Shown here: positions 5,467 through 54,379 of the stretch, in pieces
Position numbering within the stretch: the first letter of the stretch is position 1
Layout: the number at the start of each line of letters is the position of its first letter
Source: an uncultured Acidobacterium sp.
Lineage (GTDB): Bacteria > Acidobacteriota > Vicinamibacteria > Vicinamibacterales > UBA2999
Length of the DNA stretch: 59,097 bases
Assembly: GCA_964495855.1 (NCBI GenBank)
Contig: CAZBYY010000001.1
Span: 1-59,097, forward strand
Direction of reading: 5' to 3'
The notes under the pieces: generated by a model
Told to the model about the DNA's origin: nothing
What the model saw: the letters and a program-made list of their open reading frames with translations, nothing else
The model's database searches: none
Made by a program: the position numbers and the translations under genes

Positions 5467-5588
5467 GCCGGGCGATGACCCTCGCCGGAGCTTACTACGC
5501 GTCTGGCAACGCAGCCTGCGTCGCTGACGGTCCGGCGACGCTGAAACGCACCCGTAGGGATTCAGCATCCCACACGGGCCGCCGGCAA

Positions 5589-6032
5589 CTACTTCACCGA
5601 GATGATGACCGTCTTCTCGAACGCGTCGCCGATGCTCTCCGACGTCACCGTCCCGAGCTCAGCGATCGCCAGGTGCACGATGCGCCGCTCGTACGGATTG
5701 AGCGGCCCGATCTCCTGCGCCAGGCCGGTGTCCTTGGCCTTGCCGCCGAGAAACAACGCCATCTGGCGCAGCTCGTCGTCTTTGCCTTTGCGATACCCCA
5801 TGCAATCCACCACGAGACGCCGGCCTTCGGTCGTCTCGTTGCGGAAGATCGCGGCCACGATGTGCTGCAGGGCGGCGAGCGCCTCTCCCTGGCGACGGGT
5901 CAGCATGTTGCCGTCTTCGCCGGTGAGGTTGATTCGGATGCCGTCGGGCATCTCCTCCGCACTGGCCTCGAGATCGAGGTCCATTGCATCAACGACCTGC
6001 TGCACGAACTCGGTGATGTCGGATGTCGCCAT
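5589..6032 (-). CDS. jag: Jag/KhpB-like KH + R3H RNA-binding protein
   Basis: Tracked ORF 5589..6125. ATG 6032 lies 13 nt after the yidC stop. An R3H-type segment is present (LNPYERRIVHLAI). It has the conserved yidC-jag-mnmE order. Confidence 0.8.
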   Translation of the reverse strand: MATSDITEFVQQVVDAMDLDLEASAEEMPDGIRINLTGEDGNMLTRRQGEALAALQHIVAAIFRNETTEGRRLVVDCMGYRKGKDDELRQMALFLGGKAKDTGLAQEIGPLNPYERRIVHLAIAELGTVTSESIGDAFEKTVIISVK

Positions 6033-6045
6033 AAGGATGTGCGGC

Positions 6046-7758
6046 CTATTTTGCCTTGGCTCGCGCTGGAGCGCCAATGAGATAGTTTGTGAAGTATTGC
6101 TGACCGATGGTGAACAAGGTAGCAACCAGCCAGTAGATCACCAGCCCGCTCGGGAAATTGAACGACATCACCAGGAACATGATGGGCATCACCATCATGA
6201 CTTTTTGCTGCGCCGGATCACCGCCGGCAGGCTGCAGTTTCATCTGGAGGAACTGCGCGGCGCCGTTCAGCACAGGGAAGATGAACAGCGGATCCGGCGC
6301 GGACAGGTTATGGATCCACCCCATGAAATCCGCGCCTCGAATCTCGATCGACTGCGACAGCATCGAGTAAAACGCGAACAGGAACGGAAAGGTCAAGAGC
6401 ATCGGCACGCAGCCGCTGGCCGGATTGACGCCCTTGGCCTTGTACAGCTCCATGATTTCCGTGTTCATCTTCTGCCGCTCAGGATCGGTCACCTTGTACT
6501 TCGCGTACCGATCCTGGATGGCTTTCATCTGCGGCTGGATCTCCTGCATCTTGCGCATGGAGACGACGCTCTTGTGGCGCAAGGGGAAGAGCGCGAAGTT
6601 GATCAGCAGCGTGAGCGCGATGATCGACCAGCCCCAGTTGCCGACGTATCCGTGAACCCACTTCAGCGCACCGAGCAGCGGCACGGCGAGCCAGGAGAAC
6701 ATGCCGTAGTTGATGACGCGCGTGGCCTCGGGACTGATCGCGCGGAGATCCTCGAAGCCTTTCGGGCCAAGGAAGAACTTTGACTGCTCTTGCGGTTGCG
6801 CAAAGCGCAACGCATACGCGACGTAATGCCCCACGATCGCCGGGTCGTCCTGTTGCGGCGCGAGCACGGGAGCGTAATCCATGCGAACCTGGGCTCCGGA
6901 CTCGTTCACCAGCATGGACACGAAGTAGTGGTCATCAACGCCCGCGTAGCGAAGTGATCCTTCCTGCGTGCCGGTGTCGCTCGCTCTGAGACGGGTGACC
7001 TTGCCGTCCTTGTGCACGAGAGGAGCCGCCGGCGTGTTGTAGCTCGGCGACAGGAACGAAGAAGGTTTGGAACGCGCGATCTCGTCACCGAGACCCGGTC
7101 CCCAATGAATCGTTGGATTCAGTTGCTGCGATCCGACGTGAATTTGCTGCGTCATCGCTATGACGTAGCTTGTCGGCTCCAGCGTGATGCGCTTGCGCAC
7201 ATTCAGGCCATCAGCCGATGCGGTCTCGAACTCGATCGTTTGTGCCGTGCTGGTGGCGTCGATCGACGTGCCCGCCGGCGCGCCGTTGACCGTCACGCGA
7301 TAGATCGATTCATTCAGTCGTGCGCTGATCTTCGCGTCATCAACCGTCAAGGAGAACGGCTTGATCGCCGACGCACCCGCGCCCTGTGGAACGAGATCGA
7401 GCGGTTGACCGTTGTCGTTTCGGAAATCTTTGAGCACCCAGTGCGTGAGCACGCCGCCACGGTTCGAGAACACCGCCTTCACTTTCGCCGTCTCCACAAC
7501 CACTTCGCGAGCGCCTGGCTCGGTGATGGTCGCCTCAGCCGCCGGGAGCGATGCGGGTGACGCCGCAGCCAGAGACGGCGCTGCCGGCTGTGTGGACGGC
7601 GACGCGGTCGTCGCGCTCGGCGACGCGGTTGCCGCCGGAGGACTCGTCGCAGCCGTTGCATTGGCCGGCGCTTCGGGGGGCGGCGGCATCACGAACCGCT
7701 GGAAGAGAAACAGGACGAGAAATGAAAGCGTGATTGCGAGAAGAACTCTGCGTTCCAT
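6046..7758 (-). CDS. yidC: Membrane protein insertase YidC
   Basis: Tracked ORF 6046..7878. ATG 7758 (MERRVLLAITLSFLVLFLFQ = TM1) follows the yidD stop at 7784. The C-terminal 60-kDa-IMP core is present (SWLAVPLLGALKWVH, NPASGCVPMLLTFPFLFAFY, GLVIYWLV). Confidence 0.9.
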   Translation of the reverse strand: MERRVLLAITLSFLVLFLFQRFVMPPPPEAPANATAATSPPAATASPSATTASPSTQPAAPSLAAASPASLPAAEATITEPGAREVVVETAKVKAVFSNRGGVLTHWVLKDFRNDNGQPLDLVPQGAGASAIKPFSLTVDDAKISARLNESIYRVTVNGAPAGTSIDATSTAQTIEFETASADGLNVRKRITLEPTSYVIAMTQQIHVGSQQLNPTIHWGPGLGDEIARSKPSSFLSPSYNTPAAPLVHKDGKVTRLRASDTGTQEGSLRYAGVDDHYFVSMLVNESGAQVRMDYAPVLAPQQDDPAIVGHYVAYALRFAQPQEQSKFFLGPKGFEDLRAISPEATRVINYGMFSWLAVPLLGALKWVHGYVGNWGWSIIALTLLINFALFPLRHKSVVSMRKMQEIQPQMKAIQDRYAKYKVTDPERQKMNTEIMELYKAKGVNPASGCVPMLLTFPFLFAFYSMLSQSIEIRGADFMGWIHNLSAPDPLFIFPVLNGAAQFLQMKLQPAGGDPAQQKVMMVMPIMFLVMSFNFPSGLVIYWLVATLFTIGQQYFTNYLIGAPARAKAK

Positions 7759-7783
7759 TGAAGGCTTTTGTGAGCTGCGTGAT

Positions 7784-8002
7784 CTAGTGGTGTGGAACCG
7801 GGTCGTAACCGTGACCGCCGAATGGGTGGCACCTGCAGAGGCGCTTGGTTCCCATCCAGCCGCCGCGCAGCACGCCATGTCGCGTAATTGCTTCGCTCAT
7901 GTAATCGGCGCACCCGGGTGTGTAGCGGCAGCTGCCTGAAAAGAACGGGGACAGCGTGAGCTTGTAGCCGCGGATCAGCGCGAGAGTGATGAGCTTAAGC
8001 AT
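7784..8002 (-). CDS. yidD: Membrane protein insertion efficiency factor YidD
   Basis: 72-aa ORF containing SCRYTPGCADY...RHG..RG...KRLCRCHPFGGHGYDPVP, the YidD signature. It lies between rnpA and yidC. Confidence 0.85.
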   Translation of the reverse strand: MLKLITLALIRGYKLTLSPFFSGSCRYTPGCADYMSEAITRHGVLRGGWMGTKRLCRCHPFGGHGYDPVPHH

Positions 8003-10208: not shown

Positions 10209-10433
10209 CGTTTTCCACAGGCTTGATGTTCATGAATTGTGGAGGTTGAGGATGGGGCGAAAGACCCCTTCGCGGCCGGGACTGAACCCACGTTCCATTC
10301 ACAGAAAAATGCACAGTTTAAATATTTGAAAATCAAAGACTTGTGGCTGATGGAAATTTCGTAAACAAGACCTACTTCTTGTATACTTTTATATCTTCGC
10401 CTTTAACTCAAATCTCAGAGGTTAAGTAGGGCT
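10209..10433. promoter_or_regulatory. dnaA-dnaN spacer with one perfect DnaA box plus an AT-rich tract (candidate oriC/DUE module)
   Basis: TTTTCCACA at 10211-10219. Degenerate boxes are present (CCATTCACA, TCAGCCACA on the reverse strand, AAATGCACA). Hand counts give 19/60 G+C for 10321-10380 and 13/40 for 10381-10420, against about 60% nearby. Confidence 0.5.
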
Positions 10434-14098
<3,665 letters not shown>

Positions 14099-14128: not shown

Positions 14129-16642
14129 ATGGACGTTAACGTCAATCGTACGCCGGTCAACATCGAAGACGAGATGAAGCGCTCGTACCTCGATTACGCG
14201 ATGAGCGTGATCATTGGTCGAGCGCTGCCTGATGTTCGCGATGGTTTGAAGCCCGCCCACCGGCGCGTGCTCTACGCGATGCGGCAAATGGGGCTCGCGT
14301 CGAATCGCGCGTATCGCAAGTGCGCGAAGATCGTCGGCGAAGTCATCGGCAACTACCACCCGCACGGCGATGCACCCGCGTACGACACCCTCGTCCGCCT
14401 GGCGCAGGACTTCAACATGCGCAACACCCTGGTGGATGGCCAGGGTAACTTCGGCTCGGTCGACGGCGACCCACCCGCGGCGTATCGCTACACCGAAGCA
14501 CGCCTGGAAGCGCTCGCTGAAGCGCTGATGGCCGATCTCGACAAGGACACGGTCGACTTCCAGCCGAACTTCGACGAGACCACGACCGAACCCACGGTGC
14601 TGCCAGCACCGTATCCCAACCTGCTCGTCAATGGTTCCACGGGCATCGCCGTGGGCATGGCCACGAACATTCCGCCGCATAACCTCGGCGAGGTGTGCGA
14701 CGGCGTCATGTGGTTCATCAAGACCACACTGATGGGAGGGCCGGACGGTCCGCCCCAGGAGTTGTCGCGCGAGCAGAAGCTCAAGGAACTGATCCGGCTG
14801 ATTCCTGGTCCTGACTTCCCCACTGGCGGCATGATCGTCGGGCGGCGAGGCATCCACGAGGCCTACGTCAGCGGCCGTGGCGGCATCCAGGTGCGCGCCA
14901 AGGCTGAAATCGAGACGACGAAAAAGGGCGACCGCCAGCAGATCATCGTCACGGAGATCCCCTACCAGGTAAACAAGGCGAAGCTGCTCGAACGCATCGC
15001 GGAACTGGTCCGCGAAAAAACGATCGAAGGAATTTCAGACCTGCGCGACGAGTCGGATCGCTCGGGCATGCGCATTGTGATCGAGTTGAAGCGCGGCGAG
15101 GTTGGCGAGGTGATCCTCAACAATCTCTACAAGCACACCTCGTTGCAGCAGACGTTCGGAATCATCACGCTCGCCATCGTGGCCGGACGGCCGAAGGTGC
15201 TCAGCCTGCTCGAGGTCATTGAGCACTTCGTCGATTTCCGTCGCGAAGTGGTGCGCCGACGCATCGAATTCGAGCTCCGCAAGGCCGAGGCTCGGGCCCA
15301 CATCCTCGAAGGTCTGCGGATCGCGCTCGACAACCTCGACGCCGTCATCAAGCTGATCCGCGGATCGAAGAATCCTCCCGAAGCCAAGGCCGGCCTGACG
15401 TCCAACTTTGGCCTCACGGACATCCAGGCGCAAGCGATTCTCGACATGCAGCTCCAGCGGCTCACGGGGCTCGAACGCCAGAAGATCCTGGACGAGCTCG
15501 CGGAACTCACCGAGCTGATCACGCGCCTGCGCGGCATCCTCGCCGACCAGAAGAAGCTGCTGCAGATCATCGTGGACGAGCTGCAACAGGTCAAAGACAA
15601 GTTCGCAGATGCGCGCCGCACGCAGCTGATTGATGAAGAGGGCGAGTTCAGCATCGAGGACCTGATCACCGAGGAAGACGTCGCGGTGACGGTCACCGAC
15701 ACCGGATACATCAAGCGGACGCCGATCACCACCTATCGGACGCAGAACCGCGGCGGCAAGGGCCGCATCGGCATGCGCACGCGCGAGGAAGACGTCGTCA
15801 ACCACCTGTTCGTGGCCTCGACGCACTCGTACATGATGATCTTCTCCAATCGCGGGCGCGCGTACTGGTTGAAGATGCATGAGATTCCAGACGTCGGCCC
15901 GGACCACAAGGGCAAGTCAATCGCCAACCTGGTTCAATTCGAAGACGGCGAGAAGCTCGCCGCCATGCTCGCGGTCCAGGAATTCGATGATCAGCACTTT
16001 ATCGTGATGGGGACCAAGAAGGGCACGATCAAGAAGACCGAGTTGTCGGCGTTCTCGAACCCTCGTGCCGGCGGCATCATCGCCATGGGCATCGAAGACG
16101 GCGATACGGTGATCGACGTCCAACTGTCCGACGGCCAGAGCGAAATCTTCATCGGTACCCGTGACGGCAAGGCGATCAGGTTTGCAGAGGACGAAGTCCG
16201 CTCCATGGGCCGAACGGCGTACGGTGTGCGCGGTATCCAGCTGCGAGACGACGACGAAGTGGTGTCGATGCAGGTGGCCAAGCCCGGCGGCACACTGCTG
16301 ACGGTCACTGAAAAGGGCTACGCGAAGAACACGCTGATCGACGAGTATCGCGTGACGGGCCGCGGTGGCCTTGGCGTCAAGAACGTCGAGGTCACCGACA
16401 AGAACGGCCATGTCGTCGCGATCACGCAGGTGCACGCGAACGAGGAATTGCTGGTGATGACGGAGCAAGGCAAGATTCTCCGCACGCCCGCCAACGAAAT
16501 TCGCACCATCGGCCGCGCGACTCAGGGCGTGAGGCTGATGGACCTCGATGGCGAAGACAAGATCGTGTCCGTCGCGCTCGTCGACGCGGCCACCGTAGAC
16601 ACACCGGAGAACACCGGCGAAGGTCCAGGGGAGGGTGCATGA
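14129..16642 (+). CDS. gyrA: DNA gyrase subunit A
   Basis: 837-aa ORF. Motifs include [21 protein letters not shown] and the active-site region [11 protein letters not shown]-terminal beta-pinwheel repeats are present. Confidence 0.97.
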
Positions 16643-26857: not shown

Positions 26858-26903
26858 TCCACTAGAATAATCCGACGGGCGGATGGAAAACCGCCACTCC
26901 CAT

Positions 26904-28190
26904 ATGCTTGATGCGAATTTCGTTCGTGACAACCTCGACGTCGTCAAAGCCGCGATGGCCAATCGCGGCATGGACGTCACGGCGGAACTGCAGGCGTTTG
27001 CCACTGCCGAGTCCACTCGGCGGCGGCTGATCCAGGAGAGCGAGTCGCTCAAGCGCGAGCAGAACGCGTCGGGCGAACTGGTGGCCCGCGCGAAGAAACA
27101 AGGCGAGGACGTCTCGCACCTGTTCGAGGCGAACAAGCAGCGGGGCCAGAAGATCAAGCAGCTCGAGGCCGAGCTGGATCGCGTCGAGCGCGAGCGCAAC
27201 GCGATTCTCGAAACCCTCCCGAACCTTCCGGATGCGAGCGTGCCGGTTGGCAAGAGCGCCGCAGACAACGTCGTCGTTCGCACGTGGGGCGAGCCACGCG
27301 CGTTCGACTTCGAACCCAAGGCGCACTGGGACCTCGGTCCCGAGCTCGGCGTGATTGATTTCGAGCGTGCCACCAAGATTTCCGGCGCCCGCTTTGCGGT
27401 CCTCATGGGCGCCGGCGCGCAGCTCGAGCGAGCGTTGATCAACTTCATGCTCAACCTCCACACGACCGAGCACGGCTATACGGAAGTCGAGCCTCCGTTC
27501 CTCGTATCGTCGTCCACGTTGTATGGGACCGGCCAACTGCCGAAGTTCGAACAGGACCTGTTCAAGATTGCGGGCGAGTGGGATCTGTTCCTGATCCCGA
27601 CGGCCGAAGTCCCGGTGACGAATCTGTATCGCGGCGAAATCGTGGACGGCCGGCAGTTGCCGATGAAATACACGGCGTATACGCCGTGCTTCCGCAGCGA
27701 AGCCGGCTCATACGGGTCGGACGTCCGCGGGCTGATCCGGCAGCATCAGTTCGACAAGGTCGAGCTCGTGAAGTTTGCGTCGCCGCAGACGTCGTACGAC
27801 GAACTCGAAAGCCTCACGGCGAATGCGGAGCGCGTGCTGCAGTTGCTCGGTCTGCCATATCGGACGGTGGTGCTGTGCACGGGCGACATGGGGTTTTCTG
27901 CCGCGAAGACCTACGACATCGAGGTGTGGCTGCCGAGCCAGGAGACGTACCGGGAAATCTCGTCGTGCTCGAACTGCGACGCGTTCCAGGCGCGTCGCGC
28001 GAACATCAAGTTCCGCCCGGACGGCACCGGCAAGGCCGAGCATGTGCACACGTTGAACGGTTCCGGCCTGGCGGTTGGTCGAACGTTGATTGCGATTCTC
28101 GAGAACTACCAGCAGAAGGACGGATCAGTGGTGATTCCGGACGTGCTGCGCCCGTTCATGAACGGGAAGGAAAAGATCTCGCGATCTTGA
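26904..28190 (+). CDS. serS: Seryl-tRNA synthetase
   Basis: Tracked ORF 26883..28190. ATG 26904 gives [12 protein letters not shown], the canonical SerS start. A coiled-coil arm and class II motifs are present ([27 protein letters not shown]). Confidence 0.95.
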
Positions 28191-28218: not shown

Positions 28219-28308
28219 TGGCGGAGAGGAAGGGATTCGAACCCCTGGAACCCGTGAAGGTTCAACGGTTTTCAAGACCGCCGCTTTCGACCGCTCAGCC
28301 ACCTCTCC
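28219..28308 (-). tRNA. tRNA-Ser (anticodon UGA), CCA encoded
   Basis: Hand fold of GGAGAGGTGGCTGAGCGGTCGAAAGCGGCGGTCTTGAAAACCGTTGAACCTTCACGGGTTCCAGGGGTTCGAATCCCTTCCTCTCCGCCA. It has a 7-bp acceptor stem, a 3-bp D stem, anticodon loop CT-TGA-AA, a long variable arm (GAACC/GGTTC) and a TTCGAAT T-loop. Confidence 0.93.
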
Positions 28309-38013: not shown

Positions 38014-38441
38014 TCGACGCCGTCGATCAGCTCATCGTGAACTTCAACAGGCGAACGCTGGATCTTCCGGACAACCTGTTTGATCGCAAGACGCAGTTCG
38101 TGATCAATGGCGAGTCGTTTGAATCGTTGCTGAGCGCGGCGCCGAACGATCCGCTCGTGTTGATGCTGTCGCGTGGTCCCGCCGGTTATCGCTTCACCAT
38201 GAAAGCGTTGCAACACGCGATTCCCGACGCTGCGCTCGAACGCGGCGAAGTCAGCGGTGATTCCACCAAGGTGGCGACCACGGTGTGGTTGTCTGGAGGA
38301 TTGCGAGGCACCGGCGAGCGTGTCCACGTGCTCGCAACGGTCGCCTTGCGGCTGAACGCAGCGGGAGCCGTCGACGTCGCCGAGGCCAGCCTCGCCCTGG
38401 ACCAGCTCGAACGGATCCGCGCCGCCCGCCTCAGGCCGTAG
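37992..38441 (+). CDS. Hypothetical protein (possibly an NTF2-like fold)
   Basis: Tracked ORF 37944..38441. ATG 37992 (MGPAQSLIDAVDQL) is the preferred start. Composition is balanced, whereas the antisense alternative 37674..38525 is Arg/Ser-rich junk. The family call is a guess. Confidence 0.5.
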   Translation: MGPAQSLIDAVDQLIVNFNRRTLDLPDNLFDRKTQFVINGESFESLLSAAPNDPLVLMLSRGPAGYRFTMKALQHAIPDAALERGEVSGDSTKVATTVWLSGGLRGTGERVHVLATVALRLNAAGAVDVAEASLALDQLERIRAARLRP

Positions 38442-39099
38442 GCGCGTCCGGCTCGTCGGGCAGCTGCAACGCTTCGCGCACGAACATCTTTTCCGGGAGT
38501 CCGCCGAGGATCTCGATCGTCTCATTGACGATCGTCTTCGGCACCCCGGTGACGCGATACTTGCGGCTCAGATCCATGAACTCCGTCGCTTCGATCGCAT
38601 CCGCGGTGATGTTCGGATTCGCCGCTGCCATCTTGTGTGCGAGGACGACCGCCCTCGGGCAGTGCGGTCACGTGGGCGTGGAAAAGACCTGGATGTGCGT
38701 CGGCTTGTCGACCGCCTGCACCCATGCCATCGTTTCCGGATCGAGGTCGATCTTGCCGGTGCCGGCGACGATGATCGCTTCCACAAGACCGACGAACTCG
38801 TAGCCGGTCGGCGCGCCGTACATCCGCATGCGCGTGTCGACGCCGTTGCTCAAGATGACGATGGCCGGTGCCTTGTCGATGTTGTACTTGGCCTTGTCCT
38901 CGGTATCGAGGACGAAGTTCTTTTCGACGATCGTCACCTTGTCGTTCAGCGACGCGATCTCACCGACGATCTGCCGGGCGACATCGCCGCTCTCGGATCC
39001 GCCGAACGTCTGCGTGAACAGCACGAGCTCGACGGGGAGCGTGATCGACGACAGATGTTGCTTGAGTGTCGCCTCGTCTTGCGGAGACAGCAGGCCCAT
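38431..39099 (-). CDS. Two-domain glutaredoxin-like protein disulfide oxidoreductase with in-frame TGA at the CxxC position (candidate selenoprotein, U-P-H-C); 222 codons
   Basis: Tracked ORFs 38668..39099 (ends ...HIQVFSTPT-TGA) and 38431..38631 are in the same frame, separated only by TGA plus 12 sense codons (PHCPRAVVLAHK). The joined protein reads ...VFSTPT[TGA]PHCPRAVVLAHKMAAANPNITADAIEATEFMDLSRKYRVTGVPKTIVNE...GGLPEKMF. This matches the TPTCPxCP...VP(K) pattern of PDO/AhpF-N-terminal-domain proteins. Confidence 0.75.
38622..38667 (-). promoter_or_regulatory. SECIS-like stem-loop immediately 3' of the in-frame UGA
   Basis: The mRNA reads UGA-CCG-CA-CUGCC-CGAGG-GCGGUCGU-CCUCG-CACACAAGAU-GGCAG-CGG. 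The apical stem is CGAGG/CCUCG and begins 10 nt after the UGA. The loop contains GGUC. Lower pairings are CUGCC/GGCAG and CCG/CGG. Folded by hand only. Confidence 0.5.
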
Positions 39100-41869: not shown

Positions 41870-42055
41870 CGCGCGCCCATTGCCGACTAATTCAGTCGCA
41901 ATTGCAACATCGCGCCCCTCAACATAGAATGCGCTTGAGAAATTTTTCACAAGACTCTCGTCCCAACAAAAACGAGATAAAGTGAGCTGCTTTGGCGACG
42001 CTCGTACCAGGCGAGTTGTGGCCAACACATTAACTCCCGGGGGCTGCTGGATCGC

Positions 42056-42715
42056 ATGTCGCAGGTATTCCCAAAAAGCGCCAACGCGTGGTCGAAGGCC
42101 AGCATTGCTGGCGTCATCGCGTTCATCGCTCTACTCGGTTCGACGATTCTCGCGCTGCAGCGTTCCGATTTCGTGACCACTGCGAATCGCTTCGTCGAAC
42201 AACCGGTTCAATTCAGCCATCGGCACCACAACGGAGGCATCGGCATCGACTGCCGGTATTGCCACACCTCTGTTGAGGTGTCGCCCTCGGCCGGCATTCC
42301 GCCGACGAAGACGTGCATCAACTGCCACTCGCAGATCTGGAACACCAGCCCGTACCTCGAGCCGGTGCGCGCCAGTTTCCGCGAGGACAAGCCGCTGCGC
42401 TGGGTCCGCGTGCACGACCTGCCGGACTTCGTCTATTTCAACCACAGCATCCATGTCCGCAAGGGCGTCGGCTGCGAAACGTGTCATGGCCGCGTCGATC
42501 GGATGCCGCTGATGGTGCAGAAGAACTCGCTGCAGATGGAGTGGTGTCTCGACTGTCACCGCGATCCGTCCCGCTACCTGCGGCCGCGCGATCAGATCAC
42601 CACGATGGGCTATGTGCCGGCCAAGGCGCAGTCGGAGCTCGGGCCGGAGCTGATGCGCGAATACAAGGTCGCTGACGTGCAGCACCTCACGAGCTGCTCG
42701 GTCTGCCACAGATAA
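42056..42715 (+). CDS. actA: Alternative Complex III subunit ActA, pentaheme cytochrome c
   Basis: 219-aa ORF with an N-terminal TM and five CxxCH motifs (CRYCH, CINCH, CETCH, CLDCH, CSVCH). It is the first gene of the act cluster. Confidence 0.9.
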   Translation: MSQVFPKSANAWSKASIAGVIAFIALLGSTILALQRSDFVTTANRFVEQPVQFSHRHHNGGIGIDCRYCHTSVEVSPSAGIPPTKTCINCHSQIWNTSPYLEPVRASFREDKPLRWVRVHDLPDFVYFNHSIHVRKGVGCETCHGRVDRMPLMVQKNSLQMEWCLDCHRDPSRYLRPRDQITTMGYVPAKAQSELGPELMREYKVADVQHLTSCSVCHR

Positions 42716-42717
42716 AC

Positions 42718-45774
<3,057 letters not shown>

Positions 45775-45779
45775 CCGAC

Positions 45780-47162
45780 ATGGATCCAAACATCCACAAA
45801 CCCATGGCCCTGCAGGAAGTGCCCGTGATTCTTCCGGGGCACGACTTCGAGACCGTCACCGAGACGATCGCGGAAATTCCGCTGTCGAAGCGGTTCCCGC
45901 TCGGCTGGATCGGGCTGCTCCTCGTTTCGCTGACGCTGTTCGGCGTGCTCCACATGGCGCTCGGTTATCTCGTGATAACCGGCATCGGCATCTTCGGCAC
46001 GAACCAGCCGGTCGGCTGGGCCTTCCCGATCATCAACTTCGTCTGGTGGATCGGCATCGGCCACGCGGGCACGCTCATCTCGGCCATCCTGCTGCTCTTC
46101 AAGCAGCAGTGGCGCATGTCGATCAGCCGTTTTGCCGAAGCGATGACGATCTTCGCGGTGGCGTGCGCGGCGATCTTCCCCGTGTTCCACACCGGCCGTC
46201 CGTGGCTCGCCGCCTACTGGCTCTTCCCGTATCCCAACACGATGGGGTTGTGGCCGCAGTTCAAGAGCCCGCTGATCTGGGACGTGTTCGCGGTCTCGAC
46301 CTACGCGACGGTGTCGATCGTGTTCTGGTACATCGGCATGATTCCCGACCTCGGCACGCTGCGCGATCGCGCCACGTCGAAAATCAAGGCGCGCATCTAC
46401 GGCATCTTCTCGCTCGGCTGGCGCGGTTCGGCGCGTCACTGGCATCGCTATGAAGTCGCGTCGCTGATTCTTGCGGGCCTGTCGACGCCGCTGGTGCTGT
46501 CGGTCCACACGGTCGTCAGCTTCGACTTCGCGGTGTCGCTGATCCCGGGCTGGCACGCGACGATCTTCCCGCCCTACTTCGTCGCCGGCGCGATCTATGC
46601 CGGCTTCGCGATGGTGTTGACGCTGGCGATTCCGGTGCGCCGCTTCTACGGCATGGAAAGCCTGATCACCATGCGGCACATCGACAACATGGCCAAGATC
46701 ACGCTGGCTACCGGCTTGATCGTCGGCTACGGCTACACCATGGAAGCGTTCTTCGCGTGGTACAGCGGCAGCCCGCACGAGCGCTTCATGATGTGGAACC
46801 GCATGACCGGGCAGTACGCATGGTCGTACTGGGCGCTCATCGCCATCAACATCGGCATGGTGCAGTTGTTGTGGTTCAAGAAGATTCGCCAGAACACCAC
46901 CGTGCTGTTCATCATGTCGCTGATCGTCGGCGTCGGCATGTGGCTCGAGCGCTTCGTGATCGTGGTCACGTCGCTCGCCAACGACTTCCTGCCGTCGTCG
47001 TGGGCGCACTATACGCCGACGCGATGGGACTACCTGCTCTACTTGGGCACCTTCGGGTTGTTCCTGACGGCGTTCCTGCTGTTCCTGCGCTTCATCCCGA
47101 TGATTTCGATGTTTGAAGTCAAGACGCTGCTGCCGCAGGCCAAGGTGGAGGCGAAGCACTGA
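45780..47162 (+). CDS. actC: Alternative Complex III subunit ActC (NrfD/PsrC-like quinol-interacting membrane subunit)
   Basis: Tracked ORF 45519..47162. ATG 45780 (MDPNIHKPM...) lies 6 nt after the actB stop. The polytopic NrfD-like sequence includes WAFPIINFVWWIGIGHAGTLISA. Confidence 0.9.
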   Translation: MDPNIHKPMALQEVPVILPGHDFETVTETIAEIPLSKRFPLGWIGLLLVSLTLFGVLHMALGYLVITGIGIFGTNQPVGWAFPIINFVWWIGIGHAGTLISAILLLFKQQWRMSISRFAEAMTIFAVACAAIFPVFHTGRPWLAAYWLFPYPNTMGLWPQFKSPLIWDVFAVSTYATVSIVFWYIGMIPDLGTLRDRATSKIKARIYGIFSLGWRGSARHWHRYEVASLILAGLSTPLVLSVHTVVSFDFAVSLIPGWHATIFPPYFVAGAIYAGFAMVLTLAIPVRRFYGMESLITMRHIDNMAKITLATGLIVGYGYTMEAFFAWYSGSPHERFMMWNRMTGQYAWSYWALIAINIGMVQLLWFKKIRQNTTVLFIMSLIVGVGMWLERFVIVVTSLANDFLPSSWAHYTPTRWDYLLYLGTFGLFLTAFLLFLRFIPMISMFEVKTLLPQAKVEAKH

Positions 47163-47707
47163 TGTCTCACGCGGTCGAAACCACGAACGCAATGCACGGC
47201 GTGATGGCCGAATACGACAGCGGCCAGGCGCTCGTCGAGGCCACGCGCAAGACAATGGCGCAGGGCTACACCCGCGTCGAGGCCTACTCGCCGGTGCCGA
47301 TCGAGGAGCTCAACGACCTGATTCACAAGAAGCGCACGGTGCTTCCGAAGCTGGTGTTGTGCGGCGGCCTGACCGGGATGGCGACGGGCTTTGCGCTGCA
47401 GTACTGGGCGTCGGTACTGGAATATCCGATGAACATCGGCGGCCGCCCTCTGGCGAGCTGGACGACCTTCATTGTCCCGTCGTACGAGCTGACGATCCTG
47501 TTTTCGGCGCTGACGGCGGCGATCGGCATGATCGCGCTGAGCGGACTGCCGCAGCCGTATCACCCGGTGTTCAACGTCGAGCGGTTCTCGCTGGCCAGCT
47601 CCGACAAGTTCTTCCTCGTGATCGAATCGACCGATCCGAAGTTCGCGGACGCCGCGACGTTCCTGCAGGGCACGGGCGCGAAGGGAGTCTATGACGTTGC
47701 GGAATAA
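47162..47707 (+). CDS. actD: Alternative Complex III subunit ActD (DUF3341)
   Basis: 181-aa ORF whose start overlaps the actC stop (TGATG). It has a soluble N-domain plus two TM segments, typical of ActD. Confidence 0.85.
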   Translation: MSHAVETTNAMHGVMAEYDSGQALVEATRKTMAQGYTRVEAYSPVPIEELNDLIHKKRTVLPKLVLCGGLTGMATGFALQYWASVLEYPMNIGGRPLASWTTFIVPSYELTILFSALTAAIGMIALSGLPQPYHPVFNVERFSLASSDKFFLVIESTDPKFADAATFLQGTGAKGVYDVAE

Positions 47708-48371
47708 CGCCACCGAGACACGGCGGCACGGAGGCCGATTCTTGCTGGCCTCGATCGTGGCGCTGTCATTCGCCGCCGGTTGCCGCCAGGACATGCACGA
47801 CACGCCGCGCTATGAGGCGTTCGAAGCGAGTTCGACGTTCCAGGACAACCGTTCGTCGCGGAACCTGCCGGCCAACACCGTTGCGCGCGGATGGCTGCGC
47901 GAGGACGAGGCGCTCTACACCGGCAAGGTGAACGGCCAGTTCGTTGACGAATTCCCGTTCCCGATCGGCCACGACGAGCTCGTGCGCGGCCAGCAGCGCT
48001 TCAACATCTACTGCACGCCCTGCCACAGCCGGCTCGGCGACGGCAAGGGCATGGTCGTGCAGCGTGGATTGCGGCAGGCCGCGTCGTTCCACCAGGACCG
48101 CTTGCGCCAGGAGAAGAACGGCTACTTCTTCGACGTGATCACCAACGGCTTTGGCGCGATGCCCGACTACGCGACGCAGATCCCTGTGCGCGATCGCTGG
48201 TTGATCGTCGCCTACGTCCGCACGCTGCAACTGAGCCAGCACGCGTCGGTCAGCGACGTACCGGCGGATCATCGCGGCGATCTCGATCGCACTGCCAACT
48301 CCGCCGCTGAACCTGGCGCGGCTACGGCAGGCCAGGCCGGCGCGCCGTCAAGTCCAGCGGAGAAGAAATAG
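47691..48371 (+). CDS. actE: Alternative Complex III subunit ActE, monoheme cytochrome c lipoprotein
   Basis: 226-aa ORF with a lipobox (LSFAAGC), a single CTPCH and a downstream Met ligand region (GFGAMPDY). Confidence 0.85.
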   Translation: MTLRNNATETRRHGGRFLLASIVALSFAAGCRQDMHDTPRYEAFEASSTFQDNRSSRNLPANTVARGWLREDEALYTGKVNGQFVDEFPFPIGHDELVRGQQRFNIYCTPCHSRLGDGKGMVVQRGLRQAASFHQDRLRQEKNGYFFDVITNGFGAMPDYATQIPVRDRWLIVAYVRTLQLSQHASVSDVPADHRGDLDRTANSAAEPGAATAGQAGAPSSPAEKK

Positions 48372-49570
48372 TGTCGACGACGACAGTGAACTCGGAAACG
48401 TTCGTAGCGTCCGGCACCCCGCTGCCGGGCATGAAGCAGTTCGGCATGATTGCCGGCGTGCTCGGCGTGGTGCTCGCCGTCGCCGGCTTCTTCATGTCGG
48501 GCGTGGATCGCTTCTTCCAGGCGTACCTGGTCGCCTACACCTTCTGGATGGGCGTGATCATGGGCGCGATGGCGCTGCTCATGGTGCAGCACCTGTCCGG
48601 CGGCGTGTGGGGCATCATCCTGCGCCGCCCGTTCGAAGCGGCGGTGCGCACGCTGCCGATCATGACGGTCCTGTTCATCCCGATCGTGTTCGGGATGCAC
48701 TCGCTCTATGAATGGGCGCGCCCCGAAGCGGCGAATGATGCGGGTATCCAGGCGAAGGCGCTCTACCTGAACACGCCGTTCTTCCTCGTCCGCCAGGCAA
48801 TCTACTTCGCGCTGTGGAACGCGATCGGCTTCCTGCTCACCAAGTGGTCGGCGGAGCACGATCGCACCGGCGATCCCGCGTTGCTCGACAAGCTGTCGCG
48901 GCTGTCGGGCGCCGGCCTGCTGATCTACGGCCTGACGATGACGTTTGCGGCGGTGGACTGGACGATGTCGGTGAACCCGCACTGGTTCTCGACGATCTGG
49001 GGCATGCTCTACGTCGGCGGCCAGGGCCTCTCGGCGTTTGCGTTCGGCATCTGCGTGCTCGTGATGCTGGCGCAGACCGCGCCGATGAACAAGGTTCTCA
49101 CGAACAACCATTTCCACGACCTCGGCAAGCTGCTGTTTGCGTTCCTGATGTTGTGGGCCTACCTGTCGTTCTCGCAGTTCCTGATCATCTGGTCGGCGAA
49201 CCTGCCGGAAGAAATTCCTCACTACCTGAATCGCTGGGAGAACACGTGGAAGTTCCTCAGCATCTTCATTGTCGTCGGCCACTTCATGGTGCCGTATGCG
49301 CTGCTGTTGTCGCGCGACATCAAGCGCAACTACGGTAAGCTGCGGCTGATTGCGACGTGGCTGCTGGGCGCGCGCGTGGCCGAGTATTTCTGGCACGTGG
49401 CGCCTGAGCTGCACAAGGACGGCTTTACGCTGTCGCTGCTCGACGTGGCGCTGCCGCTCGCGCTCGGCGGCATCTTCATTTCGTTGTTCGTTTCGCAGCT
49501 CGGTGGCCGCTCGCTCCTGCCGGTCAACGATCCTGCTTTAGACAAGGCGCTGCATCACCATGTCCACTGA
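48371..49570 (+). CDS. actF: Alternative Complex III subunit ActF (second NrfD-like membrane subunit)
   Basis: 399-aa polytopic ORF. Its GTG start overlaps the actE TAG (TAGTG). Confidence 0.85.
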   Translation: MSTTTVNSETFVASGTPLPGMKQFGMIAGVLGVVLAVAGFFMSGVDRFFQAYLVAYTFWMGVIMGAMALLMVQHLSGGVWGIILRRPFEAAVRTLPIMTVLFIPIVFGMHSLYEWARPEAANDAGIQAKALYLNTPFFLVRQAIYFALWNAIGFLLTKWSAEHDRTGDPALLDKLSRLSGAGLLIYGLTMTFAAVDWTMSVNPHWFSTIWGMLYVGGQGLSAFAFGICVLVMLAQTAPMNKVLTNNHFHDLGKLLFAFLMLWAYLSFSQFLIIWSANLPEEIPHYLNRWENTWKFLSIFIVVGHFMVPYALLLSRDIKRNYGKLRLIATWLLGARVAEYFWHVAPELHKDGFTLSLLDVALPLALGGIFISLFVSQLGGRSLLPVNDPALDKALHHHVH

Positions 49571-50039
49571 GCACAACGGCTTCGAGCTGGAATACGGACC
49601 GACGCCGTCAGGCGCGAAGTACGAGCACACCGACATCGATGCGTCGATCGGCTACAAATTCGCCCTGTGGCTGACGGTCGCGATGTTCGTCGGTCTCGGC
49701 ATCGTCTACGGCACGTTCTGGATGTTCGAAGGACGCGCGCGCGCGGCCAACGCGGCGGCGCAGAAGTATCCGCTCGCCGTCGGGCAGACGAAGGAGCCGC
49801 CCGCGCCGAACCTGCAGAAGCAGTCGTTCAAGGACGTCTACCTGTTGCGGCAGTCGGAAGCGGCGACGCTTGGCACCTACGGATGGGTCGACAAGGATGC
49901 CGGCGTCACGCACATCCCGATCGATCGCGCGATCGAGGTGATGCTGCAGAAGGGATTTCCGGCGCGTGCTGCAGGCGGCAACGCGCTGAACGTCGTGACG
50001 CAGGACAGTTCGTCGGGTCGTACGATCGTTCCACGCTGA
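49560..50039 (+). CDS. Hypothetical single-pass membrane protein between actF and sco (possible accessory subunit)
   Basis: 159-aa ORF. Its ATG overlaps the actF 3' end by 11 nt. It has one TM (FALWLTVAMFVGLGIVYGTFWMF) followed by a ~100-aa soluble domain. Confidence 0.6.
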   Translation: MSTEHNGFELEYGPTPSGAKYEHTDIDASIGYKFALWLTVAMFVGLGIVYGTFWMFEGRARAANAAAQKYPLAVGQTKEPPAPNLQKQSFKDVYLLRQSEAATLGTYGWVDKDAGVTHIPIDRAIEVMLQKGFPARAAGGNALNVVTQDSSSGRTIVPR

Positions 50040-50067
50040 CGCGGGGCATCACGAATAGAAGCACGTC

Positions 50068-50913
50068 ATGAAAGCAACACATCTTCGAACGGCAGTGGTG
50101 GCGATGAGCGCGGCGCTCATGTCGGCGGTCGTGTCGGCGCAGGGGAATGCGCCTGGCGTGATGCCGGATCCCACGCTGCCGTCGAACAAAGTGCCGACCG
50201 TGTTGAGCCGCGTGTCGTTCGAGCAGCGGTTGAACGAGCAGCTCCCGCTCGACTTGCCGTTCAAGGACGAGCAGGGCCGCGACGTCAAGCTTGGCGATTA
50301 CTTCGGCCGCAAGCCGGTCGTGCTGACGTTCGTGTATTACGAGTGCCCGATGCTCTGCACCGAAGTGCTGAACGGGCTCGAGAGCGCGTTGCGCGTGCTG
50401 AACGAATCGATCGGCCGCGAGTTCGACGTGATCACCGTGAGCTTCGATCCGAAGGAAACGCCGGTGCTCGCGCTCGGCAAGAAGAAGGCGTATCTCGAAC
50501 GCTACAAGCGGGCCGAAGCGGAGATGGGCTGGCATTTCCTGACGGGCCAGCAGCCGTCGATCGACGCGCTGACGAAGGCGGCGGGGTTCAACTTCACGTG
50601 GGATGAGGACTCGCACCAGTTCGCGCACCCGAGCGGCATCGTCGTGGTGACGCCGCAGGGCAAGGTGTCGCGGTACTTCTTCGGCATCGATTACGCGCCG
50701 CGCGACGTCAAGTTCGCGCTGGTCGAATCGTCGAACGAGAAGATCGGATCGCTGGCCGACCGGCTGTTGCTCTACTGCTATCACTACGATCCCACGAAGG
50801 GGAACTACGGGTTCGTGGCGATGCGGGCGGTGCGCGTCGGCGGGGCGCTGACGATCCTGGCGCTGGTTGGTTTTGTGTTTGTCTCGTTGCGGAAAGAGGC
50901 GAACGGACAGTAG
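50068..50913 (+). CDS. SCO1/SenC-family copper chaperone
   Basis: 281-aa ORF with a signal/anchor, a thioredoxin-fold CxxxC motif (YYECPMLCT), a conserved His region (FAHPSGIVVV) and an extra C-terminal TM. Confidence 0.88.
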   Translation: MKATHLRTAVVAMSAALMSAVVSAQGNAPGVMPDPTLPSNKVPTVLSRVSFEQRLNEQLPLDLPFKDEQGRDVKLGDYFGRKPVVLTFVYYECPMLCTEVLNGLESALRVLNESIGREFDVITVSFDPKETPVLALGKKKAYLERYKRAEAEMGWHFLTGQQPSIDALTKAAGFNFTWDEDSHQFAHPSGIVVVTPQGKVSRYFFGIDYAPRDVKFALVESSNEKIGSLADRLLLYCYHYDPTKGNYGFVAMRAVRVGGALTILALVGFVFVSLRKEANGQ

Positions 50914-50916
50914 CTA

Positions 50917-51951
50917 ATGACAATATTCGGCATACCCATCTTCCCGGAGCAGGCATCGGCGTTCGCCAAGGACGTCGACGCGCTCTATTTCTTCATCCTC
51001 GCGACGTGCGCGTTCTTCGCGACCGGCGTGTCGGTCGCGGTCGTCATCCTCGGGCTGAAGTATCGCAAGACGCACGAGGGGCAGATCGGCGCCCGCATCG
51101 AAGGCAACCTGCCGCTCGAGCTGCTGTGGAGCGTGATCCCGACGATCATCGCGATGTTCATGTTCGGCTGGGGCGCCTCGGTCTTCTACCACTTACGGCG
51201 GCCGCCAGACGAAGCGCTGCATCTGTATGCGGTGGGCAAGCAGTGGATGTGGAAGTTCCAGCACCTCGAAGGGCAGCGCGAGATCAACGAATTGCACGTG
51301 CCGGCGGGCCGGCCGATCAAGATCACGATCAGCTCTGAAGACGTGATTCACAGCCTCTACTTCCCGTCGTTCCGCGTGAAGTACGACGCGATCCCGGGCC
51401 GCTACACCGAACTGTGGTTCGAGGCACAGAAGCCGGGCACGTACCACATCTTCTGCGCTGAGTACTGCGGCACGAATCACTCGCAGATGATCGGCATGGT
51501 GACGGTGATGGAGCCGGCGCAATACCAGGCGTGGCTGCAGGGCGGCGGGGCCGAAGGCACGCTGGCGCAGCGCGGCGCCAAGCTGTTCAACGATCTGGCC
51601 TGTTCATCGTGCCACCTCGACAGCGGCCAAGGCCGCGGCCCGTCGCTCAAGGACATCGTCGGGACGACGGTGGAATTCCAAGATGGATCGAGCGCGGTGG
51701 TCGACGAAGCGTACCTGCGCGAGTCGATCCTCACCTCGCAGGCGAAGATCGTGAAGGGCTTCCAGCCGCTGATGCCCACCTTCCAGGGGCTCGTCAGCGA
51801 GGAGAATCTCGTCGCCCTGATCGAGCACGTGAAGTCGCTGTCACCAAAGGCCACCACCGCGGCGGCGCCGATGCAGCCGCAGCCCGCGAGCCAGACCGGC
51901 GGCTCGCCGGTCAACGAACTCAAGCCGCGCGTTCAGACGGGAAAGAAGTAA
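50917..51951 (+). CDS. coxB: Cytochrome c oxidase subunit II with a fused C-terminal cytochrome c domain (caa3 type)
   Basis: 344-aa ORF. The CuA site is HSLYFPSF...FCAEYCGTNHSQM. The C-terminal heme motif is CSSCH. Confidence 0.95.
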   Translation: MTIFGIPIFPEQASAFAKDVDALYFFILATCAFFATGVSVAVVILGLKYRKTHEGQIGARIEGNLPLELLWSVIPTIIAMFMFGWGASVFYHLRRPPDEALHLYAVGKQWMWKFQHLEGQREINELHVPAGRPIKITISSEDVIHSLYFPSFRVKYDAIPGRYTELWFEAQKPGTYHIFCAEYCGTNHSQMIGMVTVMEPAQYQAWLQGGGAEGTLAQRGAKLFNDLACSSCHLDSGQGRGPSLKDIVGTTVEFQDGSSAVVDEAYLRESILTSQAKIVKGFQPLMPTFQGLVSEENLVALIEHVKSLSPKATTAAAPMQPQPASQTGGSPVNELKPRVQTGKK

Positions 51952-51954
51952 GCC

Positions 51955-53580
51955 ATGCTAGACACGCTCAAGATTCCCGAGCACCACTACCTGAATAACG
52001 GCCACGGCCTGAAGTCGTGGTTGCTGACGAAGGACCACAAGCGGATCGCGATCATGTATTTGATCTCGATCTCGGTGATGTTCGTGCTCGGCGGCCTGTT
52101 CGCGATGGGCATCCGCCTCGAGCTGGCCACGCCGCAGGGCGACTTCGTCAGCGCCGACACCTACAACAAGTTCTTCACGATGCACGGCGTGATCATGGTG
52201 TTCTTCTTCCTGATCCCGTCGATTCCCGCGGTGCTCGGCAACTTCCTGATCCCGCCGATGATCGGCGCCAAGGACCTGGCCTTTCCGCGCATCAACCTGC
52301 TGAGCCTCTACATCTACTGGATCGGCGGCATCTTCACGCTCGCGGCGATGGTCGCCGGCGGCGTCGACACGGGATGGACGTTCTATACGCCGTATAGCGC
52401 GGCGGCGTCGAACACGCACGTGATTCCGACGGCGCTCGGCATTTTCATCACCGGGTTTTCGTCGATCCTCACCGGTCTGAACTTCATCGTCACGATTCAC
52501 CGCATGCGCGCGCCGGGCATGGGGTGGTTCCGCCTGCCGCTGTTTGTGTGGGCGCACTATGCGACCAGCCTGATCCAGGTGCTTGGCACGCCGGTTGTCG
52601 CGATCACGATCGTGATGGTGTTCGTGGAGCGCGCGTTCGGCTTCGGCATTTTCGATCCGACGCGTGGTGGCGACCCGGTGCTGTTCCAGCACCTGTTCTG
52701 GTTCTATTCACACCCGGCCGTCTACATCATGATCCTGCCGGCGCTGGGCGTGATGTCGGAGCTCATCTCGACGTTCTCGCGGAAGATGATCTTCGGCTAC
52801 AGCTTCGTCGCGTTCTCGTCGCTGGCGATTGCGGTGTTCGGCTTCATCGTGTGGGCGCACCACATGTTCGTCGCCGGCATCTCGACCTACGCGGCGATGG
52901 TGTTCTCGTTCCTCAGCTTCTCGGTCGCGATTCCGTCGGCGGTGAAGGTGTTCAACTGGACGGCGACACTCTACAAGGGCGCGATCTCGTTCGAGACGCC
53001 GATGCTCTACGCCTACGGCTTCATGGGGCTGTTCCTGATCGGCGGCTTGACGGGCCTGTTCCTCGCCACGCTCGGCATGGACATCCACCTGCACGACACG
53101 TACTTCGTCGTCGCGCACTTCCACTACATCATGGTCGGCGGCGCGATCATGGGCTATCAGGGCGGCCTTCACTATTGGTGGCCGAAGATGACGGGCCGGA
53201 TGTATTCGGAGTTCTTCTCGCGCATCAGCGCGATCCTGGTGTTCGTCGGGTTCAACCTGACCTTCCTGCCGCAGTTCGTCGTCGGCTACCTCGGCATGCC
53301 GCGCCGCTATCACGCGTATCCGGATGAGTTCCAGGTGCTGAACGTGATGTCGTCGGCGGGGGCGAGTGTGCTGGGCCTCGGCTACGCGCTGCCGGTGCTG
53401 TATTTCCTCTACTCGCTGAAGAAGGGCCCGGTCGCGGGGCCGAACCCGTGGGGCGCGACGACGCTCGAGTGGACGACGCAGTCGCCGCCGCTGACGGAGA
53501 ACTTCCTCGAGGTTCCCGAAGTTGTGGGCGAGCCCTACGAGTACGAGCACGTCGTCGCCAAGGAGAGCCATCTTGTCTAA
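51955..53580 (+). CDS. coxA: Cytochrome c oxidase subunit I
   Basis: 541-aa ORF with heme-copper oxidase signatures ([12 protein letters not shown]-type [37 protein letters not shown]). Confidence 0.97.
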
Positions 53581-54379
53581 CGCGGTCGCGCACGCGGGCC
53601 ACCACGATTCACACGCCGCGCACGCGCATCATCCGGCACTGCAGCATCACTTCGACACGATGGCGCAGCAGAAGGAAGCTGCGGTCATCGGCATGTGGCT
53701 GTTCCTGCTCACCGAAATCCTGTTCTTCGGCGGGCTGTTTGTCGCCTACATGATCTACCGCGTCTGGTATTTCGAGGCGTTTGCCGAAGCCAGCCGGCGC
53801 CTGAGCATCTTCTGGGGCGGCCTCAACACGGCGGTGCTGATCGGCAGTTCGCTCACGATGGCGCTCGGCGTGCGGGCGGCGCAGACGAACAACCGCAAGT
53901 GGACGGTCAACTGGCTGATCCTGACGATGTTGCTCGGCTGCGTGTTCCTTGGCGTCAAGGTGATCGAGTATCGCGACAAGTTTGCCAACTACGAGGTACC
54001 GGGCGCGTCCTATAACTGGCTGTATCACGAGCAGCACGAGGGCGGAGCCGCCGCTGAAGGCGGTGAGCACGCCGCCGGGGCAGCCGCGGAAGGCCAATCA
54101 GCGGAAGCAGCCGCGCATCACGTGAAGATGACGCCGGATCAGCTGCAGCGCACGACGCAGATCTACTTCAGCTTGTATTTCACGATGACCGGCCTGCACG
54201 CATTGCACATGATCATCGGCGTGGGCTTGATGCTCGTGATCACGTGGATGTCGTGGAAGGGCAAGTTCGACGCGGAGTACTACACGCCGGTTGAAATGGC
54301 CGGCCTCTACTGGCACTTCGTCGACATCGTCTGGATCTTCCTGTTCCCGCTGCTCTATCTCGTCGAGAGGCACATGTAA
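53573..54379 (+). CDS. coxC: Cytochrome c oxidase subunit III
   Basis: Tracked ORF 53522..54379. In-frame TTG 53573 is preceded by AAGGAG (53561-66) and overlaps the coxA stop. The subunit III core is present ([34 protein letters not shown]). Confidence 0.88.

Follow-up and report, generated by a model that had tools for sequence, protein, structure and literature searches.

The UGA-interrupted gene and its product

The stretch of DNA analyzed here, a 59,097-nucleotide segment from an uncultured Acidobacterium sp. of the order Vicinamibacterales (contig CAZBYY010000001.1; henceforth the window), carries on its minus strand a gene for a homolog of the protein disulfide oxidoreductases (PDOs), the reading frame of which runs through an in-frame UGA that is followed, still within the coding sequence, by an RNA hairpin with an apical GGUC loop. 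These two features, a candidate selenocysteine (Sec) codon and a candidate selenocysteine insertion sequence (SECIS) element, are the subject of this report (Table 1). Around the UGA the minus strand reads ...ACG CCC ACG TGA CCG CAC TGC CCG AGG GCG GTC GTC CTC GCA CAC AAG ATG GCA GCG GCG...

Translated through the TGA, the gene product matches the NCBIfam model TIGR02187.2 (“PDO_seleno_TRX”) at 229.9 bits against a cutoff of 185, over residues 7-212 of 222, and contains a Pfam Thioredoxin_3 domain at residues 135-211. Residues 1-211 align to the Pyrococcus PDOs 1j08 (P. horikoshii) and 1a8l (P. furiosus) with E ~1e-34, and the N-terminal domains of AhpF (1zyn and 1hyu) align with the protein as well; alignment to both being our test for tandem thioredoxin folds, the protein is predicted to consist of two such units in a row, like the P. 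furiosus PDO (PfPDO) and the N-terminal domain of AhpF. In these alignments TPT-[TGA]-PHCP of the window sits on TPT-C-PYCP of the Pyrococcus PDOs and on TPT-C-PHC-P of the cysteine-containing homologs; hence, the UGA replaces the first cysteine of the C-terminal CxxC motif. In the N-terminal unit, SESG stands at the place of the CQYC of PfPDO. Judging from these relationships, the gene product is a thiol-disulfide oxidoreductase of the PDO/AhpF-N-terminal-domain type with the active site U-P-H-C, and it presumably has a redox role.

Homologs of PDO and of the AhpF N-terminal domain have been listed as a UxxC selenoprotein family (PMC13188914, PMC1794560), and since Zhang et al. (2006) reported it from Carboxydothermus hydrogenoformans and Symbiobacterium thermophilum (PMC1794560), the family is already known. 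The C. hydrogenoformans member ABB15282.1 shares with the window protein a hidden Markov model score above the cutoff, the two-thioredoxin-fold PDO architecture and a C-terminal UxxC. However, the first described members come from thermophilic anaerobes or microaerophiles (PMC1794560), whereas the host of the window is an acidobacterium of the Vicinamibacterales with aerobic respiratory genes in the same window; moreover, the window protein differs from ABB15282.1 in having SESG, and thus no second CxxC, and in being preceded by a conserved open reading frame (ORF) with eight cysteines. The Pyrococcus PDOs match it over its full length, with their C-terminal TPTCPYCP aligned to TPTUPHCP, but these archaeal proteins are cysteine-based, with CQYC and CPYC as their two CxxC sites, and require no recoding signal.

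Table 1. Features of the probable PDO selenoprotein locus and of the surrounding window (nucleotides of the hairpin are numbered from the U of the UGA)
Feature	Position	Strand	Remarks
PDO selenoprotein gene	39099..38431	minus	222 residues, 223 codons with stop; translation through TGA
In-frame UGA, proposed Sec codon 144	38670..38668	minus	homologous codon is TGA in 74/80 sequences
Spacer from UGA to upper stem, 10 nt, CCGCACUGCC	38667-38658	minus	Pro-His-Cys codons plus 1 nt; from the sequence
SECIS upper stem, 5' arm, CGAGGGC	38657-38651	minus	nt 14-20; minimum free energy fold
Apical GGUC tetraloop	38650-38647	minus	nt 21-24; presumed SelB contact; invariant in 70 Sec forms
SECIS upper stem, 3' arm, GUCCUCG	38646-38640	minus	nt 25-31; minimum free energy fold and consensus
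Lower helix, 3' side, GGCAGCGG	38629..38622	minus	only GGC 38629-38627 (nt 42-44) paired in all relatives
Upstream ORF, 162 aa	39113..39601	minus	stops 13 nt short of the PDO start codon; probably co-transcribed
mnmE	4111-5658	minus	replication-origin gene
yidC	6049-7896	minus	replication-origin gene
dnaA	8838-10205		replication-origin gene
dnaN	10407-11540		replication-origin gene
gyrB	11465-14095		replication-origin gene
gyrA	14129-16639		replication-origin gene
serS	26871-28187	plus	adjoins tRNA-Ser(UGA)
tRNA-Ser(UGA)	28219-28308	minus	only tRNA in the window
Complex III-like and oxidase block	41981-54379	plus	same-strand block

Conservation of the UGA and of the frame beyond it

A scan of species-representative genomes recovered 80 loci, nearly all from Acidobacteriota and mostly from metagenome-assembled genomes (MAGs) of the Vicinamibacterales, an order in which the relatives are mostly soil and freshwater organisms. 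The 80 sequences analyzed below are 79 of these loci and the window, locus L064 having been left out for lack of a motif match. The codon homologous to the UGA of the window is TGA in 74 of them (henceforth Sec forms) and TGC or TGT in six (Cys forms). A protein search adds dozens of homologs, 84-97% identical to the window protein, with a length of exactly 143 amino acids, and thus ending at the same TGA; the full-length homologs (217-227 residues, 57-71% identity) have CPHC without exception among the 16 aligned. The ORF that follows the TGA is intact over 70-85 codons in all 74 Sec forms. Its divergence is 0.165 at codon positions 1 and 2 and 0.443 at position 3, against 0.194 and 0.453, respectively, for the segment preceding the TGA, values that point to purifying selection of the same kind on both parts of the protein.

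These patterns bear on an alternative reading of the locus, whereby the TGA would be a true stop in a pseudogene or in a split gene coding for a 143-residue N-terminal protein and a separately started C-terminal part, with the hairpin a by-product of GC-rich sequence. Gene callers do annotate 143-residue products (in JGI entries under the name 'AhpF'), an ATG 13 codons past the TGA opens a 66-residue ORF (38631..38431), and short GC-rich hairpins are common. Against this stands the conservation of the TGA along with an in-frame ORF under purifying selection in 74 species-level genomes. Moreover, the 12 codons from the TGA to the next ATG (PHCPRAVVLAHK) show 96% amino-acid identity and include the remainder of the active site, which would be senseless if they were untranslated, and the methionine after the TGA is equally conserved in the full-length Cys forms. 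In addition, the synonymous sites of the hairpin are frozen and covary in Sec forms only, as detailed in the next section. The comparative data therefore speak strongly against a true stop, which we regard as extremely improbable, and they show that the frame downstream of the UGA is translated. As to how the UGA would be decoded, TGA is the ordinary stop of 11 of the 27 other genes of the window; this implies the standard genetic code and rules out a reassignment of TGA.

The codons immediately 5' of the UGA show a bias of their own: of 70 Sec forms, 44 have ACT for the threonine directly preceding the UGA (codon 143) and 36 have ACA at codon 141, both codons being rare elsewhere in the GC-rich PDO gene, and six Cys forms have ACG or ACC at codon 143. 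A possible reason is selection on the sequence context 5' of the UGA. In the window, ACG is used at both Thr positions (codons 141-143; 38671-38679, minus strand).

Structure and conservation of the hairpin

The RNA of positions 38670..38615 (56 nt) folds at -22.3 kcal/mol, the 18-nt core accounting for -10.1 kcal/mol when folded by itself. The core is a perfect 7-bp stem closed over GGUC, the G22-U23 of which belong to the Val151 codon as its first and second bases. An earlier note on this DNA, in which the hairpin had been folded by hand, gave after the TGA the 10 nt CCGCACUGCC, a stem arm CGAGG (38657-38653), a loop GCGGUCGU (38652-38645) and the opposite arm CCUCG (38644-38640), and all of these lie at those positions. 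Its proposal that a G-U pair could tighten the loop holds as to the tightening; the fold, however, closes both G19.U26 and C20-G25, leaving a GGUC tetraloop tighter than the CGGUCG that it had envisaged. Below the core there is a 3-bp lower helix, the 5' strand of which consists of the last three spacer nucleotides (38660-38658); RNAalifold pairs nt 11-13 with nt 42-44 here, and the minimum free energy (MFE) fold of the window has in addition a lower helix CUGCC/GGCAG with three outer pairs. An extended structure of about 46 nt, as the note had it, is present in the window and its closest relatives but is not a conserved feature.

Of the 74 Sec forms, 70 have the hairpin C(G/C)AGGGC-GGUC-GUCCU(C/G)G without any insertion or deletion. 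In the 52 distinct sequences among them, on which the pairing statistics were computed, every cell of the core helix is paired (364 of 364, 100%), whereas only 30-75% of cells are paired when the 3' partners are slid by 1 to 3 columns; RNAalifold, run without a supplied model, arrives at an identical 7-bp stem with its GGUC loop and adds the 3-bp lower helix. At pair 15-30, 28 of the distinct sequences have G:C and 24 have C:G; pair 16-29 shows A-U (51 sequences) or G-U (one), and pair 19-26 shows G.U (51) or G-C (one). The exchange at pair 15-30 is compensatory and is brought about by synonymous third-position changes, CCG/CCC at Pro148 and CTC/CTG at Leu153, which are perfectly linked: 45 sequences combine CCG with CTC, 25 combine CCC with CTG, and none is mixed.

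The constraint is also seen at single codons. Of the 56 codons with an amino-acid conservation of 95% or more and a degeneracy of fourfold or higher, exactly four show no synonymous diversity at all, and these are the contiguous codons 149-152 (AGG GCG GTC GTC) that encode the upper stem and loop; the next-lowest value is 0.111, and typical ones are 0.3-0.7. AGG is used at codon 149 in 69 of 70 sequences, as against 20 of the 508 arginine codons elsewhere in the gene. Outside the hairpin, the nucleotide identity of the Sec forms ranges over 61-99%, with a median of 70%. Both of the comparative checks that the earlier note had proposed, covariation among orthologs and synonymous-site conservation downstream of the TGA, thus come out in favor of the hairpin. 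This comparative evidence is decisive: the hairpin is maintained by selection beyond the needs of protein coding.

The lower helices behave differently from the core. The extended helix 9-13/42-46 is only 82% paired, with 9-46 unpaired in 34 and 10-45 in 12 of the 52 sequences; hence, the CUGCC/GGCAG plus CCG/CGG helix was rejected as a conserved feature, being conserved only at its inner 3 bp. Those pairs (11-44, 12-43 and 13-42) hold in all sequences, but since their bases are non-synonymous positions fixed by Cys147, Pro148, Met157 and Ala158, they are uninformative about structure. An alternative 3-bp extension, pairing nt 10-12 with nt 33-35, is 81% paired and was likewise rejected as a conserved feature.

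The four Sec forms beyond these 70 are distant ones (L071, L074, L078 and L080; 55-61% identity), with the TGA at locus positions 6427, 1798, 6433 and 4812, respectively. They lack the GGUC stem and have instead hairpins of the form CGAGC-CGUGUC-GCUCG or CCGGGCU-GUC-AGCCUGG, seen in the 60 nt after the TGA, in which G22-U23 is still apical and its distance from the UGA unchanged. It seems, then, that the SECIS stem was rebuilt around the fixed Val codon, although the case is weaker here since the core energies (-6.2 to -10.0 kcal/mol) overlap those of some Cys forms.

Fate of the hairpin in cysteine-containing relatives

Seven Cys forms (L044 and L060 together with L081-L085, which were added for this comparison) are closely related to the clade with the hairpin and have the same or nearly the same stretch of peptide, P-R/K-A-V-V-L-A. 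In six of the seven it is encoded by other codons (CGG, CGC or AAG; GCC; GTG) and the hairpin is degraded, with 4-6 of the 7 pairs left and/or an altered loop (GGUG, CGUC or CGUG in five of the seven). The core MFE of these six is -0.9 to -6.5 kcal/mol, versus -10.0 to -13.4 kcal/mol in all 70 Sec forms. An intact hairpin is hence found in 70 Sec forms and lacking in none of them, while it is found in one and lacking in six of the close Cys forms (Fisher's exact p = 3e-8, with no phylogenetic correction). The earlier note had held that Cys orthologs with the same nucleotides would reduce the hairpin to a coding constraint; six of the seven differ, and the exception, L082, is taken up below. 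The comparison shows that selection on the hairpin is tied to the presence of the TGA.

Comparison with bacterial SECIS elements

The bacterial SECIS (bSECIS) model of Zhang and Gladyshev, used in bSECISearch and restated more recently, allows 3-9 nt for the apical loop and 4-16 bp for the upper stem; one of the first two loop nucleotides has to be a G (mostly as G[G|U]), the loop has to lie 16-37 nt beyond the UGA, and the MFE may not exceed -7.5 kcal/mol (PMC13188914). Like the elements so modeled, the hairpin of the window lies within the coding sequence immediately 3' of the UGA, and it agrees with the model in every respect: the loop is of 4 nt (GGUC), the stem of 7 bp, the spacing 17 nt (nt 4-20, the same in all 70 sequences) and the MFE -10.1 kcal/mol. 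There is no structural difference to record other than that the spacing is at the short end of the range and the upper stem is perfect and bulge-less.

The apical loop of the E. coli fdhF SECIS reads GGUC. The upper stem-loop of that element comprises 17 nt (nt 15-31) beginning 11 nt from the UGA, with a bulged U17 and with G23/U24 in the loop (PMC8659212). The G-U dinucleotide of the apical loop, which in fdhF is the SelB contact, is shared, G22/U23 of the window corresponding to G23/U24 of fdhF with a shift of 1 nt. The window stem-loop is 18 nt long (nt 14-31) and follows a 10-nt spacer; thus, the fdhF-like spacing claimed in the earlier note is not exact, being 10 rather than 11 nt, but it is only one nucleotide off, with the 3' boundary the same in both. 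Furthermore, the closing pairs of the window are C-G and G.U rather than A-U, and its conserved lower helix is of only 3 bp, set off by a one-sided internal loop of 10 nt. By analogy, the element would work like that of fdhF without being a strict copy of it.

Proposed selenocysteine insertion and its alternatives

We propose that the hairpin is a functional bacterial SECIS in the PDO mRNA and that the UGA is read as Sec, and we put the probability of this at about 90%. The proposal draws on membership in TIGR02187.2 and the alignment of the UGA to the first cysteine of CPYC/CPHC, and on the conservation of the TGA, selection on the downstream ORF, covariation of the hairpin, its frozen synonymous codons and its loss in Cys forms. 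Agreement with the bSECIS model, the use of TGA as an ordinary stop elsewhere in the window and the documented Sec users among Acidobacteriota count in its favor as well. The earlier note's view of a SECIS-like hairpin at a CxxC-position UGA is thereby supported, with the recruitment of SelB that it envisaged remaining the expected consequence. Mechanistically, the UGA would specify the first position of the C-terminal CxxC, and 10 nt further on the 7-bp stem would present the GGUC loop from within the coding sequence. While the UGA approaches the ribosomal A site, the hairpin would remain folded at the mRNA entrance, and SelB would bind the loop through its C-terminal winged-helix domains, presumably by way of G22/U23, the counterparts of fdhF G23/U24. 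SelB.GTP.Sec-tRNA(Sec) would then be delivered to the UGA and outcompete release factor 2, and translation would go on for 78 codons to yield the 222-residue protein with its U-P-H-C redox center.

Several observations weigh against this proposal. First, the 56-nt fold of the single sequence has z = -1.54, with 15 of 200 shuffles folding equally well, and when the peptide PHCPRAVVLAHKMAAA is recoded with the codon usage of the gene itself, about 1.35% of the recodings give a core hairpin at least as stable as -10.1 kcal/mol. These figures also speak for a true stop with a hairpin of chance origin; we have set single-sequence thermodynamics aside as evidence, since this z is not significant. 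The MFE check suggested in the earlier note thus yields a fold of the stated stability but no significance, and its warning against relying on the fold alone was well founded. Second, no SECIS family was recovered from Rfam, either at gathering thresholds over the window or in a permissive search of 38560-38730; a togavirus frameshift hairpin, matched at chance level (E = 1.5), was the sole hit. Third, the compensatory switch at pair 15-30 perhaps represents just one or two independent events, as a Fitch count of 2 on a rough tree built by the unweighted pair group method with arithmetic mean (UPGMA) indicates. Fourth, the bulged U17 of fdhF has no equivalent in the continuous 7-bp helix of all 70 sequences, and the E. 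coli SelB needs that bulged U (PMC8659212); the SelB of this lineage presumably does not. Fifth, the Cys form L082 (TGC; gene at 301-954) retains a perfect 7-bp stem and GGUC loop. Its hairpin is identical to that of the CCC/CTG subtype of Sec forms, and L082 may have gone from TGA to TGC only recently, keeping the SECIS as a relic. Finally, selA, selB, selD and tRNA-Sec were found neither in the 59-kb window, from which 30 proteins were scanned with NCBIfam for SelA, SelB and SelD, nor in the ~0.9 Mb of flanking sequence of the related loci, tRNA-Sec having been sought in the window and 85 loci. Acidobacteriota do include documented users of Sec (PMC1794560 among the sources).

That no Sec machinery was found in the sequence covered would also suit a read-through of the UGA that does not involve selenium, whether by a near-cognate tRNA (for Trp or Cys) or by low-level suppression, with the hairpin as a generic pause or stimulator without SelB. 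A UGA followed by C, as here, is a weak termination context, and a translated downstream frame does not by itself tell which amino acid is inserted. What sets Sec insertion apart is, first, the position of the UGA, exactly at the nucleophilic cysteine of a CxxC in a family with known Sec members. Second, the invariant SelB-type GGUC loop stands at the canonical distance, with its bases and position conserved beyond what the stability of the stem requires; a generic roadblock would have no need of frozen loop bases. Third, the Cys forms use TGC or TGT, which implies a cysteine-like residue, and a tryptophan would inactivate the site. We hence consider selenium-independent read-through very improbable, and Sec the residue most in keeping with these data.

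The synonymous-site selection establishes a function at the level of RNA without identifying which one, so that a different role of the hairpin, be it in mRNA stability, as the site of a regulatory protein or in pausing for protein folding, has to be weighed as well; the hairpin of L082, retained in the absence of a TGA, is a point in its favor. Such a role would leave it a coincidence, though, that the hairpin tracks the TGA (70 of 70 versus one of seven), that its geometry fits the bSECIS model throughout, and that the distant Sec forms, with a different stem, keep G22-U23 apical at the same distance from the UGA. The likelihood of this alternative is next to negligible in our estimation.

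Genomic context

Directly upstream of the PDO gene lies the 162-residue ORF listed in Table 1. Its product has eight invariant cysteines (three CxxC motifs and two further cysteines) in columns that are 99-100% conserved, and it matches no Pfam or NCBIfam family. In 74 of 75 loci it is the same-strand neighbor of the PDO gene, beside Sec and Cys forms alike, and the eight-cysteine protein may be a redox partner or substrate of the PDO. Going further, one could imagine that the Sec-containing PDO and this protein constitute a dedicated, so far undescribed selenium-dependent redox pair as a core feature of the Vicinamibacterales, with the lineage's SelB reading a GGUC hairpin that has no bulge and is organized around the fixed codon Val151, the stem having been rebuilt at least once around G22-U23, as in the four distant Sec forms. 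We regard this composite scenario as doubtful and offer it as a speculation.

The window as a whole is a chromosomal origin region, with mnmE, yidC, dnaA, dnaN, gyrB, gyrA, pcrA, glmS, glmU and serS, followed by efflux genes, the PDO gene and respiratory genes. The latter make up a block resembling alternative complex III or Qrc, with genes for a multiheme cytochrome c, a 1032-residue fused molybdopterin-like/iron–sulfur subunit and a DsrP/NrfD-like membrane subunit, and then for cytochrome c oxidase subunits II and I; the alternative complex III-like and cytochrome c oxidase genes together indicate an aerobic respiratory lifestyle. The tRNA-Ser(UGA) gene next to serS is not a tRNA-Sec. A screen for other in-frame TGA codons with hairpins brought up no further candidate selenoprotein gene in the window, and about eight scattered single matches in related loci were taken as background.

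Several of the related loci, including L001, L003, L006, L007, L010, L044 and L046, come with submitter taxon labels (Acidimicrobiia, Cyanobacteriota and Bifidobacteriaceae) that clash with Vicinamibacterales/Acidobacteriota. Their PDO genes are 68-89% identical and mostly have the same upstream neighbor; a shared gene and neighbor despite such labels indicates mislabeled or mis-binned MAGs.

Implications

Both the type of signal and the selenoprotein family were known beforehand, and the accepted view of the mechanism of Sec insertion is left unchanged; what is described here is a well-supported ordinary case in soil Acidobacteriota. It does correct a systematic annotation error, in that dozens of public entries of 143 amino acids, several of them named 'alkyl hydroperoxide reductase subunit AhpF' (JGI), would represent the N-terminal two-thirds of a 222-residue selenoprotein. 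The relatives also amount to a natural experiment, whereby the Sec forms keep the hairpin through frozen or compensatory synonymous sites and the Cys forms let it decay, and the combined Sec/Cys data set should serve as a good benchmark for SECIS predictors. As for the organisms themselves, the TGA form of the Sec-containing PDO is documented here as near-universal in the Vicinamibacterales, and near-universal use of Sec in the PDO of so abundant a soil lineage would bear on the selenium demand of soils and on the redox biology of these bacteria.

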